Origin: an uncultured bacterium
GTDB taxonomy: Bacteria; CAIJMQ01
Direction: 5' to 3'
DNA length: 26,881 nucleotides
Assembly (NCBI GenBank): GCA_964573245.1
Contig: CAZNJA010000015.1
Span: 1 to 26,881 of the forward strand
Below the pieces are notes generated by a model. That model did no database searches. It worked only from the letters and a program-made list of their open reading frames with translations, and was not told where the DNA came from. The translations under genes were made by a program, and so were the position numbers. This document shows, in pieces, positions 5,353 to 18,331 of this stretch (the first letter of the stretch is position 1; every line of letters starts with the position of its first letter).

Positions 5353-5442
5353 CGGATATTTGATGCTAGATGCTGGATACTTGTAGAAACTGACGAAAAG
5401 AATTTAGTAACGAGAATCTAGTATCAAGAATCAAGCATCCAG
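5353..5442. repeat. Intergenic hairpin of inverted 7-nt tandem repeats (GATACT/AGTATC family)
   Basis: GGATATT TGATGCT AGATGCT GGATACT ... AGAATCT AGTATCA AGAATCA AGCATCC. Confidence 0.85.
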
Positions 5443-12189: not shown

Positions 12190-13647
12190 ATGAATAACAG
12201 AAGTTTGCTTTATCGATTAATATTGGTAGTAATTGTCTGTGGACTTGCTTTCTGGAGTATGTATCCGCCTCAAGAGAAAATAAACAGAGGACTCGACCTG
12301 CAGGGTGGAATACATATGGTCTTGGGCGCGAATCTTGATAAAGTTCCCACTATGAATATGACTGAGGAAGGTTTGCAGGCAAAGACATTGGAAGAACTGC
12401 GAACATTGTCCGGACAGTTGGGAACGGATTACAGAGATAAAAACAAAGACCGTCTTGTTCAAGAAATCCTTCAAGTTCAGAAAAACAGAAGAAAACAAGC
12501 AGTTGATAGGGCTCTGGAAATCATAAAAAACAGAATAGACGAGTTCGGCGTTGTAGAACCGCAAATACAAAAACAAGGCGCAGACCAAATTGCGGTGCAA
12601 CTTCCCGGGGTGGTTGATACCGAAGAAGCGTTAGAAGTAGTTAGCAAGGTTGCACATTTGGAGTTTAAATTAGTTGAAGCGGACAAAAATTACAATTCCG
12701 ATTTAATAGAAAAGGCAAAAAAAGGAGAAATTCCACCGAATTTGGAACTTAAATATTTGATGGATGAGGATACAGGAAAGCCGGCCGAAGCGTTATTGCT
12801 GCATAAAGAAGTGTCTCTTACAGGCGAGTATCTTACCAATGCATATGTCGGTTTTGGCTGTTTGGGTATGCCTGAAGTTGATTTGCAGTTTGTTAGTAGA
12901 GGAGCGCGGATTTTTTCAAGGTTGACAGGCGAGAATGTGAATAAGAGATTGGCAATTCTTCTTGACGGTAAAGTTCGTTCTGCTCCGAATATAAACGAAA
13001 AAATTTCGGAAGGGAGAGCGAGAATTAGCGGTAGTTTTGATATGGACGAAGCAAGCAGATTGGCTTCGATACTTAGGGCAGGCGCTTTGCCTGTTCCAAT
13101 AGAGGTGTTATCGATTATGAGAGTGGGACCGACGCTTGGCGAAGATTCAATAAGACAAGGATTCAGGGCTGCTGTTTTTGGGATTATATTGGTGGTTTTA
13201 TTTATGACTGTCTATTACGCATTTTCGGGTGCGATTGCGAATTTCGCGCTTTTTTTATGTATGCTTTTGGTTTTGGGGGCATTGGCGGGACTTCGCGCTA
13301 CTTTGACTTTGCCGGGAATTGCCGGATTGGTTTTGACTATAGGAATGAGCGTGGATGCTAATGTCTTAGTATTCGAAAGAATAAGAGAAGAACTTGCCAA
13401 GAACAAGACAATTCGAGCCTCGGTAGATGCGGGTTATAATAAAGCGCTTATTACTATTGTCGACGCGAATGTTACAACGCTTATTTCTGCTTTGGTCCTG
13501 TTCTATTTCGGCACAGGTCCGATAAAAGGTTTTGCGGTTGTTTTATCTATCGGAATAATTGCGAGCATGTTTACCGCTTTGGTTGTTACAAAACTAATTT
13601 TTGATTATTTGATATACGTGAGAAAAATAAATAGATTGAGTATATGA
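12190..13647 (+). CDS. secD: Protein translocase subunit SecD
   Basis: GLDLQGG, RIDEFGVVEP, LRAGALP, VGPTLG, TLTLPGIAG, GMSVDANVLVFERIREE, DANVTT. Confidence 0.97.
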   Translation: MNNRSLLYRLILVVIVCGLAFWSMYPPQEKINRGLDLQGGIHMVLGANLDKVPTMNMTEEGLQAKTLEELRTLSGQLGTDYRDKNKDRLVQEILQVQKNRRKQAVDRALEIIKNRIDEFGVVEPQIQKQGADQIAVQLPGVVDTEEALEVVSKVAHLEFKLVEADKNYNSDLIEKAKKGEIPPNLELKYLMDEDTGKPAEALLLHKEVSLTGEYLTNAYVGFGCLGMPEVDLQFVSRGARIFSRLTGENVNKRLAILLDGKVRSAPNINEKISEGRARISGSFDMDEASRLASILRAGALPVPIEVLSIMRVGPTLGEDSIRQGFRAAVFGIILVVLFMTVYYAFSGAIANFALFLCMLLVLGALAGLRATLTLPGIAGLVLTIGMSVDANVLVFERIREELAKNKTIRASVDAGYNKALITIVDANVTTLISALVLFYFGTGPIKGFAVVLSIGIIASMFTALVVTKLIFDYLIYVRKINRLSI

Positions 13648-13660
13648 AACGATATAATAA

Positions 13661-13742
13661 CGGTTATCGGTTATCGGTGTTCGGTTTTCGCAAAGAGTCT
13701 TTAACGCAAACCGCAAACCGTCTTCTTTTTTTCCGAAAACCG
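13661..13742. repeat. Intergenic hairpin of inverted 7-nt repeats (CGGTTAT family)
   Basis: CGGTTAT CGGTTAT CGGTGTT CGGTTTT CG ... CG CAAACCG CAAACCG .. AAAACCG. Confidence 0.8.
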
Positions 13743-13771: not shown

Positions 13772-14659
13772 ATGAAATTCTTAAGAGACACGAACATAGA
13801 TTTTATGAAATATAGGAAGTTCGCTTTTATTGCGTCTTCTATTTTTGTTCTTATTGGTCTTATCAGTTTCTTTTTAAGAGGCGAAGCAAACTTCGGTATT
13901 GATTTCACCGGCGGGACGCTGGTCAGATATAGATTCGCAGAAGCGATAAATACGGGCGATGTGAGAAATTCTTTATCTGAAGCAGGACTTGAAAAAAGCA
14001 CTATCCAGTCTTATGACAACGGGGAAGGGATCCTTATAAAAACAGCCGGCGAAGCAAGAAAGGAGATTCAAAAAATTATCAACGATAAGTTTTCATCTTT
14101 TTCCCCGGTTGTGGAAGAAGAAATCTCGATAGGTCCTGTGGTCGGCAATCTTTTAAAAAGGCAGGCGCTTATCGCTGTGTTTTTTGCTCTAATCGGTATC
14201 CTTATATATACAGCGTGGAGATTTAAATTCGTATTCGGAGTTTCTGCGGTGATTTGTCTTTTTCATGATGTGTTGTTTACTGTCGGAGTATTTTCGTTGA
14301 CACGAAGAGAAATTTCCCTTTCAGTTATTGCCGCTTTCTTAACTATCGTGGGATATTCCTTGAACGATACTATAGTTGTGTTTGACAGGATAAGGGAAAA
14401 CATGAAACTTCATCATAGACATCCTAACATTCCCGAAATAATCAATGCCTCCATTAACCAAACCCTTTCCAGAACAATCATCACTTCTGGCACTACGCTT
14501 ATTCCTGTTCTCGCGTTGTTATTTTTAGGCGGCCAGGTGATAAAAGATTTCGCTTTTGCTTTGATGGTAGGAATAGTGGTGGGAACATATTCGACCATCT
14601 ATATCGCTTCCCCGCTTGTTATAGAGTTGAGCAAATTCTTAAAAACCAAAATCCGCTAA
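13772..14659 (+). CDS. secF: Protein translocase subunit SecF
   Basis: GIDFTGG, IGPVVG, HD, GYSLNDTIVVFDRIREN, QTLSRTIITS, GTYST. Confidence 0.97.
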   Translation: MKFLRDTNIDFMKYRKFAFIASSIFVLIGLISFFLRGEANFGIDFTGGTLVRYRFAEAINTGDVRNSLSEAGLEKSTIQSYDNGEGILIKTAGEARKEIQKIINDKFSSFSPVVEEEISIGPVVGNLLKRQALIAVFFALIGILIYTAWRFKFVFGVSAVICLFHDVLFTVGVFSLTRREISLSVIAAFLTIVGYSLNDTIVVFDRIRENMKLHHRHPNIPEIINASINQTLSRTIITSGTTLIPVLALLFLGGQVIKDFAFALMVGIVVGTYSTIYIASPLVIELSKFLKTKIR

Positions 14660-15256
14660 TTTTTTCATTTCATCCATAACTCTGTCAGAAAACTCTTTGT
14701 ATAGGTCTTTTTTATCTTTGTTTCCCGAGTCCTTGAAATACAGCGGTTTGCCGAATGCAAGCGAAATCTTATGAGTGGTAATCCATTTTTTGTCTCTAGG
14801 GAGCGCCTGTCCGCTGCCTTTTATCAAAACCGGTATTACGGGGACATTTGCCTTGGCGGCTATGAGTCCAACTCCTCTTTCTCCTTCTGATATAGTGCCC
14901 GCGGGACTTCTTGTTCCTTCCGGAAAAAGCAATAATACTTTACCTTTCTTTAAAATTTCCAGAGATTTTTTAAAAGCGCCGATTTGCAACTGTTCTCTTG
15001 AAATCGGTATCGTATTTAATCTTTTTATAATCCAGGAGAAAAAACCAAGTTGAAACAACTCTTCTCTTGCCAAAAAATAAATCTGTCTGGGTGATGCTGT
15101 ACCCGCTATTGCAGGGTCAAGATAACTCTCGTGATGCGCCGCCAAAATCACACCGCCTTTTTGTGGAATGTTCTCTTTGCCTTTTACTTCCCATCTGAAA
15201 AGTATCTTAAAAATGGGCCTAAGCACAATATGCGCAACAGCGTAAAGTATGTTCAT
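14639..15256 (-). CDS. plsC: 1-acyl-sn-glycerol-3-phosphate acyltransferase
   Basis: HESYLD (HX4D), FPEGTRS, VPVIPV; 3' end overlaps secF. Confidence 0.9.
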   Translation of the reverse strand: MNILYAVAHIVLRPIFKILFRWEVKGKENIPQKGGVILAAHHESYLDPAIAGTASPRQIYFLAREELFQLGFFSWIIKRLNTIPISREQLQIGAFKKSLEILKKGKVLLLFPEGTRSPAGTISEGERGVGLIAAKANVPVIPVLIKGSGQALPRDKKWITTHKISLAFGKPLYFKDSGNKDKKDLYKEFSDRVMDEMKKLADFGF

Positions 15257-15267
15257 AACACTACCTT

Positions 15268-15393
15268 TGGATACTAGATACTTGATTCTGGATTCTCGTT
15301 AATAAATTCTCTTTCAGTTGTTTCTACGAGTATCCAGTATTTTTTATTTGTTTTATTAGTTACTAGTATCCGGTATCTAGAATCTAGCATCCA
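15268..15393. repeat. Intergenic hairpin of inverted 7-nt repeats (GATACT/AGTATC family), inverted homologue of 5353-5442
   Basis: GGATACT AGATACT TGATTCT GGATTCT ... AGTATCC .. AGTATCC GGTATCT AGAATCT AGCATCC. Confidence 0.85.
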
Positions 15394-15403
15394 TTTGTTT
15401 TAG

Positions 15404-16801
15404 CTATTTTCCTATACAAAACCTTGCAAAAATCCTGTCCAGTATATCATCCTCAACCGTTTCGCCTAAAATCTTTTTAAACGAATTCAGAGATTCTTTC
15501 AAGTCAACGGCAATAAACTCTTCGCTTAAATCTTTGCTTGAGGTCTCCAAACTCTTTGCAAGCCCTTCATAAGCGCTTTTTAGAGCTTCTCTGCTTCTGG
15601 CGTTTACCATAATGGTACTTTCACCCATTTTTACACCACCCTCAAGCACTATTTTCTTGATAAACTTCTTAATCGAATCAATGCCTTTCCCTTTCAGCGC
15701 CGATATCTTCAAAACCTTTTTATTCCCGATTAAACTTTGAAGCTTACTTTTTGATATTTTCTCAGGCAGGTCAACCTTATTGATAAGGCAAATCATCTTT
15801 TTATGTTTTATTATTTTAACAATATCCCTGTCTTGGCTTGATAAAGCTTTTGTCCCGTCAACCATAAATAACACAAGGTCTGCATTTGCCAAATATTCTT
15901 CAACTTTTTTCAGCGCGGCTTTATCAATTATATCCTCTATTTTCTTAAACCCTGCAGTATCAACTATTTTTACGGGTATCCCGCCGATATTAATCCATTC
16001 CTCAATAATATCCCGCGTTGTTCCGGGAATGTGCGTGACTATTGCCCTTTCCTTCCCTACCAAACGGTTAAGTAAAGTGGACTTGCCGACATTGGTTTTC
16101 CCTATTAAAAGCACCAACACGCCGTCCCGCAAAACTTCACCTTCCCTGCTTTGCTTCATTAATTTTTCGGTTTCGGATTTAAGTTTCTTTATCCTTTTTG
16201 TGAATTCGTTCTTCTTTATGGTATCAATATCCTCTTCGGGAAAATCCAGCCCCGCTTCAATAAAAGTTAATATCTCCAGAGTTTCATCTTTTAATTCTTT
16301 TATCTTTTCGGAAAACGCACCTTTAAGTTGCGACATTGCCGACTTAAGAGCAAGTTCCGTTTTCGCTTCCACGATATTTATTACAGCTTCGGCTTGAGCC
16401 AAATCGAGCCTTCCGTTTAGGAACGCTCTTTTTGTGAATTCACCAGGTTCTGCAAGTCGTGCACCGCATCCAAGCACCGCATCAAGTATTCTCCTAAGCG
16501 GTAATATTCCCCCGTGACAGTTTATCTCCGCAATATCCTCTCTTGTATAACTCTTCGGCTTCCTCATAATAGAAAGAATTACCTCATCTAAGATTTCTTT
16601 ATTTCGGATAATATGTCCATAATGAATAGTATATGAAGGAAGTTTTGAAGGAGGAACGCCGTTTTTACCTTTGAATAACTTATCCGCAATCGCGAGCGCC
16701 TTATCTCCTGATAAGCGGACTATTCCTATTCCGCCTTCGCCAAGAGGAGTTGATATTGCGGCAATCGTATCGCTTTTGGCTAATGTGAATTTAGTTTTCA
16801 T
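15404..16801 (-). CDS. mnmE: tRNA modification GTPase MnmE (TrmE)
   Basis: DTIAAISTP, PKSYTRED, GEFTKRAFLNG, GKTNVGKS, GTTRD, DTAG, NKVD, C-terminal FCIGK. Confidence 0.98.
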   Translation of the reverse strand: MKTKFTLAKSDTIAAISTPLGEGGIGIVRLSGDKALAIADKLFKGKNGVPPSKLPSYTIHYGHIIRNKEILDEVILSIMRKPKSYTREDIAEINCHGGILPLRRILDAVLGCGARLAEPGEFTKRAFLNGRLDLAQAEAVINIVEAKTELALKSAMSQLKGAFSEKIKELKDETLEILTFIEAGLDFPEEDIDTIKKNEFTKRIKKLKSETEKLMKQSREGEVLRDGVLVLLIGKTNVGKSTLLNRLVGKERAIVTHIPGTTRDIIEEWINIGGIPVKIVDTAGFKKIEDIIDKAALKKVEEYLANADLVLFMVDGTKALSSQDRDIVKIIKHKKMICLINKVDLPEKISKSKLQSLIGNKKVLKISALKGKGIDSIKKFIKKIVLEGGVKMGESTIMVNARSREALKSAYEGLAKSLETSSKDLSEEFIAVDLKESLNSFKKILGETVEDDILDRIFARFCIGK

Positions 16802-16830
16802 ATACTTTAACTAAAAAGATTGTGTTGCTC

Positions 16831-16860
16831 GGATTCTAGATACTTGATACTAGATTCTAG
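16831..16860. repeat. Downstream 7-nt repeat arm of the four-helix-bundle element
   Basis: GGATTCT AGATACT TGATACT AGATTCT AG; contains the gene's TAG stop (16850-16852). Confidence 0.85.
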
Positions 16861-17233
16861 TTTTATGTAACAAATCTACAGATTTAATAAAATTGTTTAT
16901 CATTTTACCAAGATATTTATACTCCATGCAGAGATGTTTATATTTTTCTTTATTAATTAATGATCTAGTTTCGTATAAAGTGTCTAAATGGTCTATAGTT
17001 TCATCGCAGGAAGCTAAAGCGTAGATGAGGAATTTTATAAATTCTTGTTTATATCTGCGTCTTCCAAAACCTTCAACTATATTGCCTCTAATAGATTTGC
17101 TTGACCTTCTTATTTGACTGCCTTCTTCATACATCTCAAATTTCGGAAATTTTAGACTAATCTCGTGAATTTCTTTGGCTAATGTCCGTGCTTTCTTATA
17201 AATATCCAAATCCCTATAACTCTTATACGCCAT
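16850..17233 (-). CDS. Four helix bundle protein (23S rRNA IVS protein family, Avd-like fold)
   Basis: [58 protein letters not shown]. Confidence 0.92.
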
Positions 17234-17249
17234 TTTTTTATCTTTTATT

Positions 17250-17418
17250 AGTATCTACGAGTATCTGGTATCCAGAATCTAGTATCAGTTCTTCTTTTAC
17301 TAGTATCCAGCATCAGTTTTTAGTCTTTCTATCTTCTACGAGTATCTAGAATCAAGAATCTAGTATCGTTTTCGTTTTTTATCTTCTACTAGTATCTGGA
17401 ATCTGGTATCTAGCATCA
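17250..17418. repeat. Upstream 7-nt repeat arms of the four-helix-bundle element (four blocks)
   Basis: Blocks of AGTATCT/GGTATCC/AGAATCT/AGCATCA separated by pyrimidine-rich spacers; complementary to 16831-16860; overlaps the cmk stop. Confidence 0.85.
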
Positions 17419-18117
17419 AGCTTTCTCATTTATTATAGATATTACTTTCTCTATCACTTCCTCTATTGTCATCCCCGTGGTATTGACAGGGATGGCGTCC
17501 TCCGCTTTCTTCAGCGGCGCGATTTCTCTTGTGAAATCCTTATTATCTCTTTCTTTTATATCCTGCTTAATTTTTTCAAGTTCGCTTTCCATCCCTTTAT
17601 TCTTCTCCTCAATCCATCTTCTTTTTGCCCGTTCTTCAATTGATGCATCAAGATAAAACTTATAAGGCGCATTGGGAAATACAACCGTTCCTATATCCCT
17701 GCCCTCTACAACGATTCCGCCATCTGAACCGACCTGCCTCTGCATCTTTTTCATCTTATTGCGTACCTCTTTGTTCTTACACACCCACCATATATTATTA
17801 GTCACTTCTTCAGTCCGTATCTTATCGGTTACTTCTTCTCCGTCCACCCAAAGCCTCATCCCCTTCTTATCATCCCCGCCCGCCAAATCTTGTTGGGAGG
17901 GTTTTTTCACTATTAAAATTGTTTCCTTTACCATTTCAATCAGTCTCTTTTTGTCTTTTTCCGTTATACCTTCCGTTAGCGCCTTCAAAGTCATTGCCCG
18001 ATACATTGCGCCGGTGTCCAAATACAAAAACCCCAAGCGTTTGGCAACCTCTTTTGCAACGGTTGTCTTTCCAGCTCCCGCAGGCCCGTCAATCGTGATA
18101 ATAGTGTTCTTTTTCAT
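17416..18117 (-). CDS. cmk: Cytidylate kinase
   Basis: ITIDGPAGAGKTT, YLDTGAMYRA, VVEGRDIGTVVFP, RDNKD..R..APL; SD AAGGAG. Confidence 0.97.
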   Translation of the reverse strand: MKKNTIITIDGPAGAGKTTVAKEVAKRLGFLYLDTGAMYRAMTLKALTEGITEKDKKRLIEMVKETILIVKKPSQQDLAGGDDKKGMRLWVDGEEVTDKIRTEEVTNNIWWVCKNKEVRNKMKKMQRQVGSDGGIVVEGRDIGTVVFPNAPYKFYLDASIEERAKRRWIEEKNKGMESELEKIKQDIKERDNKDFTREIAPLKKAEDAIPVNTTGMTIEEVIEKVISIINEKA

Positions 18118-18225
18118 TATGCTCCTTGGTTTGACTTATTGTTGTTTAAGAGCTTATATTATACAGGAAAAGGGGGGAGGTAGGGAGTAGGTTGTACTTT
18201 TTTAAACTAGTTAATTGTTAGAAGT

Positions 18226-18246
18226 AAATAAAAACGGTCAGGTCTT
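18226..18246 (+). repeat. Junction motif, copy 1: AAATAAAAACGGTCAGGTCTT
   Basis: 20/21 identical to 21166-21186; related to 18511, 19830, 20416, 22653, 25900. Confidence 0.75.
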
Positions 18247-18247
18247 C

Positions 18248-18331
18248 CCCCGCAGATTTGTTAAAGCAAATCTAGACGCGGGGACAAGCGCATAGTTTTA
18301 CTCACCATGTTCGTAAAACTGGCAATGGGGG
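18248..18331. repeat. Two tandem bulged hairpins of the CCCCRYAG..CT-N4-RYGGGG family
   Basis: CCCCGCAG ATTTG..CAAAT CT AGAC GCGGGG (18248-18283) and CATAG TTTTAC..GTAAAA CT GGCA ATGGGG (18291-18330). Confidence 0.7.

Follow-up and report, generated by a model that had tools for sequence, protein, structure and literature searches.

The window analysed here, the whole 26,881-nt contig CAZNJA010000015.1, is contig C15 of an uncultured member of the Omnitrophota whose assembly (G000) comprises 1.46 Mb in 110 contigs at 38.4% GC and is 93% complete. Between the cytidylate kinase gene cmk and mnmE this window carries a 127-aa open reading frame (ORF) of the PF05635 family, enclosed by inverted arrays of the degenerate heptamer GATNCTN that are usually four units (28 nt) long. 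From sequence comparisons we read this stretch as probably (at about 70%) one copy of a mobile cassette that lacks a transposase and has heptamer arms specific to its protein subfamily. The architecture as such is real, non-random and general across phyla. PF05635 is a large family, known chiefly as the ORF of 23S rRNA intervening sequences (IVSs) and as the fold of Avd, a protein of diversity-generating retroelements, and we know of no function for it. In outline, the cassette would consist of a promoterless PF05635 gene between inverted GATNCTN arrays, inserted co-directionally at the cmk-mnmE junction and read through from the host operon, with the stop codons of both the upstream gene and the cargo inside or overlapping the arms. 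Its two ends would be asymmetric, with an arm plus GTAGAA forming the left one, and versions without cargo would persist as short hairpins in intergenic spacers. It would be the same kind of object as the ORF-bearing IVSs of 23S rRNA, but placed within mRNA operons, and the encoded protein would work on its ends, in DNA or RNA form, so as to maintain, regulate or move it, with the gene-less copies served in trans.

A PF05635 gene between inverted heptamer arms

By ORF and Pfam reading of the window, the minus-strand gene order is cmk (17416..18117; PF02224, E = 1.2e-72), the cargo gene (16850..17233), mnmE (15404..16801) and an acyltransferase gene (14639-15256), which bears out the position between cmk and mnmE given in an earlier note on this DNA. 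The cargo protein matches PF05635 with E = 2.1e-29 (102.3 bits, cut-off 33.8) and TIGR02436, "four helix bundle protein", with E = 2.2e-30 (105.1 bits, cut-off 24). By sequence comparison it also matches the solved chains 2gsc_A (E = 1e-5) and 2rld_A (E = 0.01), both from entries with five chains. Judging from substitution rates, PF05635 proteins are under purifying selection: dN/dS was 0.086, 0.044 and 0.087 in three ortholog pairs among genomic relatives (77-89% protein identity, synonymous divergence 0.6-1.6). As the same note had stated, the unit encodes no transposase, again by ORF and Pfam reading. A search for a sigma-70-like promoter upstream of the cargo gene on its strand found none, the counts not exceeding those in shuffles.

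The downstream arm (16832..16859, plus strand; NAGNATC on the coding strand) has four GATNCTN units and holds the TAG stop of the cargo gene (16850-16852), so the block proposed to supply the stop codon does so. On the upstream side, where four heptamer blocks had been described, three are full and the fourth is only partial; all lie on the minus strand, opposite in orientation to the downstream arm. The innermost (17259..17286) has four units and is followed by GTAGATACTAAT... and the start codon at 17233. The partial arm of about two units (17300..17314) was recovered as complementary pair I7. The second full arm (17340..17367) comprises four units with 0 mismatches, leads inward into GTAGAAGATA and belongs to a ~50-nt tandem repeat of the left end, and the outermost (17390..17417), also of four units and with GTAGAAGATA inward, overlaps the TGA stop of cmk (17416-18). 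With up to one mismatch allowed, three consecutive units (GATNCTN x3) matched 15 times in the window, against 0.00 expected from 100 dinucleotide-preserving shuffles. Complementarity is perfect over 14 nt between 16845-16858 and 17274-17287 and over 13 nt between 16832-16844 and 17341-17353, and a further complementary stretch at the locus covers 43 nt at 72%. Both joints between cassette and host are bridged, without differences, by contigs of four public DNA runs; the arrangement is therefore not an assembly artefact.

Copies at other junctions and in other phyla

The junction was compared in three genomes of the same genus (G001, G002 and G003) and one of the same family (G004); together with G000 these are 81-96% complete. 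In G004, cmk and mnmE abut. In G001, whose cmk is 82% identical, the junction holds an empty ~110-nt hairpin of a CGGTTAT family. In G002 and G003 the gene after cmk is another member of PF05635 (E = 1e-18), only 25% identical to the window's protein in the same comparison in which mnmE is 82-86% identical; its arms differ from GATNCTN and have, by eye, a period of 10. Among relatives, then, the junction that the earlier note had singled out for comparison is empty, filled by a hairpin or filled by another PF05635 gene. A ~30-nt leader (window 16802-16831, L005) and a longer mnmE N-terminus are common to G000 and G002, and G001 and G004 have neither. Since the leader is shared downstream of different cassettes, this suggests cassette replacement at one inherited site. 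In G003 (L041, G003:C65) the mnmE-acyltransferase block on the downstream side of the cassette is inverted relative to G000, with one breakpoint at the cassette, and inverted arms may mediate rearrangements.

PF05635 genes number five in G001, four in G002 and five in G003, and there are none in G004 and G005. By eye, complementary flanking arrays surround 11 or 12 of the 14 genes in G001-G003, each with a unit of its own. Only three close ortholog pairs cross genomes, at 89, 88 and 77% identity, the last of them arm-less and syntenic, and 11 of the 14 copies in the relatives are without a close counterpart. The 89% pair has the same arms in both genomes, of a family other than GATNCTN. In G000 this cassette sits on contig C46 at a hypC-hypD junction, next to a HypC-family gene; its G001 counterpart occupies the spacer between mnmE and plsC, the acyltransferase gene. 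The DNA similarity begins at the left arm and stops at the right arm, the flanks are unrelated, and the position in G000 that corresponds to the G001 site is taken by the empty GATNCTN hairpin (15270-15391). Gene plus arms had been proposed to form a unit, and homology between two copies at different loci is indeed bounded by the arms; on this alignment we regard the pair as decisive for a transposed unit. GATNCTN x3 matches number 71 in G000, 41 in G001, 1 in G002, 6 in G003 and 4 in G004. There are 22 CGGTTNN arrays in G000 and 16 in G001, both of which have the cognate gene, and 1, 3 and 0 in the others; because the genomes are kin, these latter counts are not independent evidence.

Within G000 itself there are six PF05635 copies. 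For every ORF of at least 90 aa (1269 in all) we scored how far the 100 nt upstream are complementary, without gaps, to the 100 nt around and after the stop codon; the six copies took ranks 9, 12, 14, 18, 120 and 927, and at least four of six would fall in the top 18 by chance with p = 4e-7. (A ranking of flanks by RNAduplex, which put the paralogs at ranks 44-997, was dropped as too noisy, with long interior loops and GC effects.) The four armed paralogs have four different units: GATNCTN, CGGTTAT-like, AGAATTA-like and AAATTCC-like.

Two further samples extend the comparison. For the first, species-representative genomes were scanned with the protein of the C46 cassette, giving 80 loci, of which 77 were scored (three near contig ends were left out, and loci with mis-called short ORFs were retained). 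It includes Omnitrophota, Patescibacteria/CPR (candidate phyla radiation), Bacteroidota, Nitrospirota, Desulfobacterota, Ignavibacteria, Clostridia, Planctomycetota, Verrucomicrobia and others. An arm score of at least 12 was reached at 47 of the 77 loci, compared with 16 of 376 permuted upstream/downstream pairs (p = 1e-29). Over all 77 loci, the self-identity of the flanks was 0.44 upstream and 0.42 downstream at lag 7, and 0.39 and 0.38 at lag 14, over a background of 0.26-0.28; the coding control was flat. Both neighbours are co-oriented with the gene at 57 of these loci and both are antisense at one (p = 4e-16). Five CPR genomes of 0.5-1 Mb contain 6-37 TAGGCNN x3 matches each (control 0), and the pairs lie either ~380 nt apart, which is gene-sized, or 20-60 nt apart.

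For the second sample, metagenomes were scanned with the window's protein, which returned 80 loci at 52-78% identity (74 scored, six being near contig ends). GATNCTN upstream together with NAGNATC downstream was present at 19 of the 22 loci with at least 69% identity, at 3 of 15 with 58-68% and at 1 of 37 with 50-57% (p = 2e-11). In the more distant relatives the arms are built from other period-7 units, such as GTTGCTN, GGTGCTG, GTTGCGR, GATACCR and GATATTA. At Pfam-confirmed junctions, close relatives sit between the large and small subunit genes of acetolactate synthase (ilvB-ilvN, seven loci) and between EtfA and acyl-CoA dehydrogenase genes (etfA-acd, five loci), and they also occur at FabD..FabF and at argininosuccinate lyase/AIRS-family kinase (argH-thiL-like) junctions. 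These sites, with the co-orientation in the first sample, agree with the proposal that the unit inserts at operon junctions. Period-7 inverted arms, which the earlier note had suggested looking for around family members, were found in G000, in its congeners and in both samples; in place of the stable synteny and arm-less homologues that would have spoken against a mobile element, the junction varies and arms recur in homologues. Arrays in this sample have 3-30 units with a mode of four. The same cassette at ilvB-ilvN in three metagenome loci (L136, L137 and L138) has 30, 11 and 30 upstream units; heptamer arrays expand and contract like microsatellites.

Could ordinary intergenic repeats, for instance REP-like (repetitive extragenic palindrome) terminators or stabilisers, simply share their spacers with small acquired genes? 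G000 does show a general period-7 excess (Tandem Repeats Finder reports 241 period-7 arrays; period 6 has 52 and period 8 has 80), and housekeeping genes are also flanked by arrays of one family. An example is secD (12190-13647), which lies between CGGTTAT-type arrays (window 13661-13720, and upstream of 12190) and has a flank complementarity score of 18, the second highest in G000, because neighbouring spacers carry arrays. Such coincidence would however have to place four of six paralogs among the top 18 of 1269 ORFs and to recur in two independent cross-phylum samples. It would also have to make the motif follow the protein subfamily across hosts when paralogs in one genome differ, and to end the homology of transposed copies precisely at the arms. 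Moreover, six small GIY-YIG genes of G000 are without such arms, and scans for terminator-like or promoter-like sites located none at the arms, with counts no higher than in shuffles. We consider this explanation already largely refuted, with a probability close to negligible.

Gene-less hairpins, asymmetric ends and the conserved heptamer

G000 contains 59 GATNCTN arrays of at least three units, 41 of them with exactly four, and a shuffled genome contains none. Among them are 21 convergent pairs, each made of a GATNCTN arm, a loop of 14-66 nt and a NAGNATC arm; there are no divergent pairs. These gene-less hairpins fill intergenic spacers and mostly end 7-38 nt from the flanking ORFs. Two lie in the window: one with a 66-nt loop in the mnmE-plsC spacer (15270..15391), and one with a 15-nt loop between two plus-strand ORFs (5355..5439). 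A strict Watson-Crick hairpin finder (score at least 16) returned only 19 hairpins and missed the GATNCTN family because the arms are imperfect.

The hairpins have asymmetric ends, with GTAGAA or GTAAAA on the inner side of one arm and GTTAAT or GTTAAA on that of the other. The gene-bearing unit has a GTAGAA-type end upstream, present three times in the ~50-nt tandem repeat, and a GTTAAT-type end downstream. Gene-less and gene-bearing copies thus share both termini in the same polarity, as do derivatives resembling miniature inverted-repeat transposable elements, and since the hairpins keep both asymmetric ends they look like internally deleted versions of the gene-bearing unit. Where both flanking genes are co-oriented and the polarity was callable, hairpin polarity matches transcription eight times and opposes it once (p = 0.039, with end classes that were defined after inspection of the data). 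The earlier note had held that the element leaves empty copies, at 5353 and 15268. The gene-less hairpins exist, at these places as elsewhere (21 in the genome), but "leaves" presumes a direction, and hairpins with both ends kept resemble internally deleted derivatives. They may be either footprints or derivatives that spread independently.

At the RNA level, the minimum free energy (MFE) and centroid structures of a 606-nt transcript agree in pairing the outermost upstream arm with the downstream arm and leaving the ORF in the loop. The transcript can therefore fold as had been proposed, with a whole-molecule z-score of only -1.92 (20 shuffles). If the arms formed a long double-stranded stem, RNase III could cut it and the ORF loop would be excised from the polycistronic RNA. 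The fold speaks for this, as do the z-scores of the gene-less hairpins (-3.6 to -6.3 against shuffles) and the arm length of 28 nt: according to PMC4990558, the 428-nt Coxiella IVS encloses its ORF, which belongs to this family, in a terminal stem of 28 bp, and RNase III cuts within that stem. The genomes at hand argue otherwise. The RNase III profile PF14622 has no match in G000 (93% complete), TIGR02191 has none in any of the five genomes G000-G004 (81-96% complete), and a hand-written signature-motif pattern for RNase III finds nothing in six frames of G000. Since RNase III was found in none of the five genomes, RNA excision has no support in this organism. (Such a lack would be unusual for bacteria if upheld in closed genomes.) Fold strength shows no bias to the transcribed strand (5 vs 5, an uninformative split), and an Rfam scan of 14500-18300 with E up to 1 gave no match, rRNA included. 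Finally, the arms do not behave as a stem kept for its pairing. In the 21 hairpins the variable heptamer positions are complementary in 30 of 156 cases, below the fraction of 0.34 expected from composition (p = 6e-5); in 19 gene-bearing units of the metagenome sample the fraction is 0.480 against 0.481, that is, at chance; and compensatory change is not seen. Taken together, we find RNA-level excision unlikely.

Heptamer positions 1, 2, 3, 5 and 6 are constant in every unit of both arms across loci whose proteins are 70-78% identical, a frequency that is partly circular as the detection rule required those positions. As far as these alignments tell, what is conserved is the fixed positions of the heptamer and not the pairing, for which the arms appear not to be selected. 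One protein subfamily keeps its motif across hosts and junctions, and paralogs within one genome differ. A constraint on structure alone would permit compensatory drift, and a host factor would give one motif per genome. As the motif is kept where pairing is not, and follows the subfamily and not the host, we infer that the arrays may be recognition sites for the encoded protein; this is the mechanism we prefer, at odds that we would still put somewhat below even. A more specific proposal, which we likewise hold to be less likely than not, is that PF05635 proteins are sequence-specific readers of tandem heptamers, each subfamily with a 7-nt unit of its own and plausibly one such unit for every subunit of the ring, that would move, copy or protect the cassette and serve gene-less hairpins in trans. 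TRAP, which reads spaced triplets, offers a likeness for the reading of heptamers by a ring-shaped oligomer. The resulting arrangement would resemble the autonomous and non-autonomous members of a REPIN-RAYT system (REP doublets forming hairpins, and REP-associated tyrosine transposases), here run by a four-helix bundle that is not a nuclease.

The ends of the unit also raise the question of whether the four-helix gene is passive cargo, mobilised in trans by a REP-type Y1/HUH (RAYT-like) transposase encoded elsewhere. GTAGA occurs within 9 nt after 15 of the 59 arms, and in 14 of these it is exactly GTAGAA; GTAG-tagged REPs are thought to be moved by RAYTs, whose genes are flanked by inverted REPs (PMC3733652, as far as its accessible text goes). 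The cargo varies as well, with a GxxExxY gene and a 267-aa ORF in similar arms, and G000 has one Y1_Tnp match, at 32.7 bits. This sole Y1-transposase-like ORF (G000:C12:23859-25169; 436 aa, with an N-terminal Y1_Tnp-like domain, a hydrophobic segment and a long C-terminal extension) looks inactive by eye, however: the histidine pair of the HUH motif and the catalytic tyrosine appear to be missing from their usual positions. In addition, each cassette in one genome has its own motif, so that several enzymes would be needed, and none was found; and the motif tracks the subfamily of the cargo protein. Mobilisation by such an enzyme is in our estimate improbable.

A different account of the heptamer is translational: a stop-bearing repeat of seven gives stops in three frames, and a unit built from it could overlap gene ends without producing fusions. 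The stops of cmk and of the cargo do lie in arms. In the upstream flanks TAG occurs on the sense strand at 2.92 per 70 nt (coding control 0.61), and its complement is enriched downstream. Of the units in G000, 69% have A or T at position 7, which creates TAG or TGA at the unit boundary, and three-frame stops have likewise been pointed out for TAACTGA repeats (accessible part of PMC4679880). Among 288 units of close relatives, by contrast, 57% have C at position 7 and only 25% have A or T; most of the units there carry no stop codon and nevertheless retain period 7 and the fixed positions. In G002/G003, moreover, one arm family has a period of 10 by eye. Three-frame stops are thus only partly supported as the reason for period 7, and we regard an insulating role as the explanation of the unit as very improbable.

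Several observations count against the mobile cassette itself and the recognition of its arms by its protein. In the first sample, 30 of 77 loci score below 12. Two of the six paralogs in G000 are without convincing arms (those on contigs C25, weak, and C64, none), and the arm-less C64 gene and its G003 ortholog are in synteny. Visual comparison of two insertion sites showed no target-site duplication, and an enzyme for movement was not identified. G001 has its 41 GATNCTN x3 matches without a close homolog of the window's protein among its five PF05635 genes, and a GATNCTN-armed unit in that genome (L125, G001:C11:340400-341950) carries a 267-aa ORF (446-1249) that matches no Pfam family. The unit has a GTAGAAAC left end, as in GATNCTN units, and the TAG stop of the ORF lies within the right arm; the cognate protein is therefore not needed for arrays to persist or to carry cargo. 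Motif and subfamily could also go together simply because the unit is inherited as a whole, and not through recognition. Related genomes are, besides, not independent, and most of the sequences are metagenome-assembled genomes or metagenome contigs.

Relation to known systems, and further observations

The closest parallel is the IVS of 23S rRNA in Leptospira and Coxiella, in which a PF05635 ORF lies within terminal inverted repeats, no transposase is present and the distribution is sporadic. Its complementary termini of ~28 bp, the length of the Coxiella stem, have their counterpart in the 28-nt arms described here, the outer ones of which pair in both MFE and centroid structures. The two differ in place, as IVSs occupy rRNA helices 9, 25 or 45 and the present unit lies between protein-coding genes. 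The arms of the present unit are degenerate-heptamer arrays with variable positions not paired above chance, and the element has many gene-less copies, in genomes (G000-G004) in which RNase III was not found. According to the accessible part of PMC4990558, the Coxiella ORF product S23p is apparently not made in vivo; the same part cites Ralph and McClelland (1993) for the IVS as a mobile element whose ORF serves mobility.

REPINs and REP-RAYT loci share with the cassette a single gene between inverted short repeats, with the repeat also dispersed as hairpin pairs (PMC3733652, PMC3116915). In the parts of these reports available, they also lie in spacers mostly between co-directional genes, have a repeat family of their own for each gene subfamily and have a GTAG-like tag at one end. 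Unlike a RAYT, the gene studied here encodes a four-helix bundle without nuclease or HUH fold and not a Y1 transposase, and its repeats are tandem heptamer arrays instead of one palindrome. RAYTs are mostly vertically inherited, as stated in the accessible text of bioRxiv 2022.05.22.493013, whereas PF05635 genes are not syntenic among the congeners.

Avd is a distant relative by sequence: the cargo protein matches the Avd equivalog model NF033474 with E = 2.8e-4 at 21.1 bits, far under the 80-bit cut-off. In the available part of bioRxiv 2023.10.23.563531, Avd forms a positively charged barrel of five subunits and binds a structured RNA element, and the PF05635 entries 2gsc and 2rld likewise have five chains. 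The difference is that no reverse transcriptase is adjacent, the neighbours being cmk and mnmE; no dedicated search for a reverse transcriptase or a template/variable repeat was made. Cyanobacterial short tandemly repeated repetitive sequences (STRRs) are tandem intergenic units of 7 nt. The TAACTGA repeats of Beggiatoaceae are intergenic heptamers too, often next to start codons, with three-frame stops, and it has been discussed whether they might be mobile (PMC4679880). As far as the accessible part of that report goes, these are direct repeats with a proposed role in translational regulation, linked neither to PF05635 nor to inverted pairs that enclose a gene. The present arrays are inverted pairs with defined ends and a motif tied to a protein subfamily.

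Genes annotated 23S_rRNA_IVP have been reported inside CRISPR-cas operons, for example between cmr3 and cmr2 (18 genes; PMC3936711), and in 16S and 23S rRNA insertions of CPR bacteria (PMC11270868). In the portions of both reports at hand the gene is taken as cas-associated or merely listed, and heptamer arms and gene-less derivatives go unmentioned. A mobile cassette would make these cases insertions of the same kind. Our literature searches, which left subscription journals and supplements outside their coverage, turned up no prior description of PF05635 with heptamer arms. These data provide the family with a defined architecture across many phyla, made of subfamily-specific inverted heptamer arrays, gene-less derivatives and co-directional operon insertion, and the old conjecture of a mobile IVS with an ORF that serves mobility becomes directly testable through binding specificity and mobility. 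If the cassette is what we take it to be, PF05635 genes inside cas, ilv, fab and other operons would be re-read as insertions and not as pathway components, a caution for genome annotation and for function prediction by guilt by association. Heptamer repeats, whose excess in the intergenic DNA of bacteria has long been noted, would then in part have a source. Were the arrays read sequence-specifically, the proteins would form a new, naturally diversified family of programmable nucleic-acid binders; a ring-shaped heptamer reader would give the 30-year-old "IVS protein" a function and the STRR-like heptamer excess an origin.

Some read joints near the locus were considered as signs of excision and rejected. 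Those at 16853>17381 and 16858>17334 have short sides (20-24 nt) and intervening letters that match the loop of another copy, which makes them other repeat copies and not excision here; the joint 15311>17634 (side 24) is likewise another repeat copy. In run X2, a contig of a slightly divergent strain (side 93 nt) skips or replaces the region of the mnmE-acyltransferase hairpin (window 15258-15413).

Besides the 59 GATNCTN arrays, G000 has further, unrelated heptamer families: CGGTTNN with 14 arrays, AAGNATT with 7 and CAAATNN with 8. A GxxExxY gene (G000:C103:751-1119; TIGR04256, E = 3e-38) has complementary flanking repeats of its own, TGATTACAC-like, and occupies a junction that in the congener G001 holds a PF05635 cassette; GxxExxY genes may be a second type of cargo for such elements. 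As possible cargo, the six small GIY-YIG genes had been checked as well. By eye, two of these ORFs (G000:C1:10059-10331 and G000:C14:13250-13456) seem to lie inside or beside tRNA-like sequence, with tRNA-like direct repeats around the first and tRNA halves seemingly on either side of the second; on this visual impression they could be homing endonuclease genes of the intron type.

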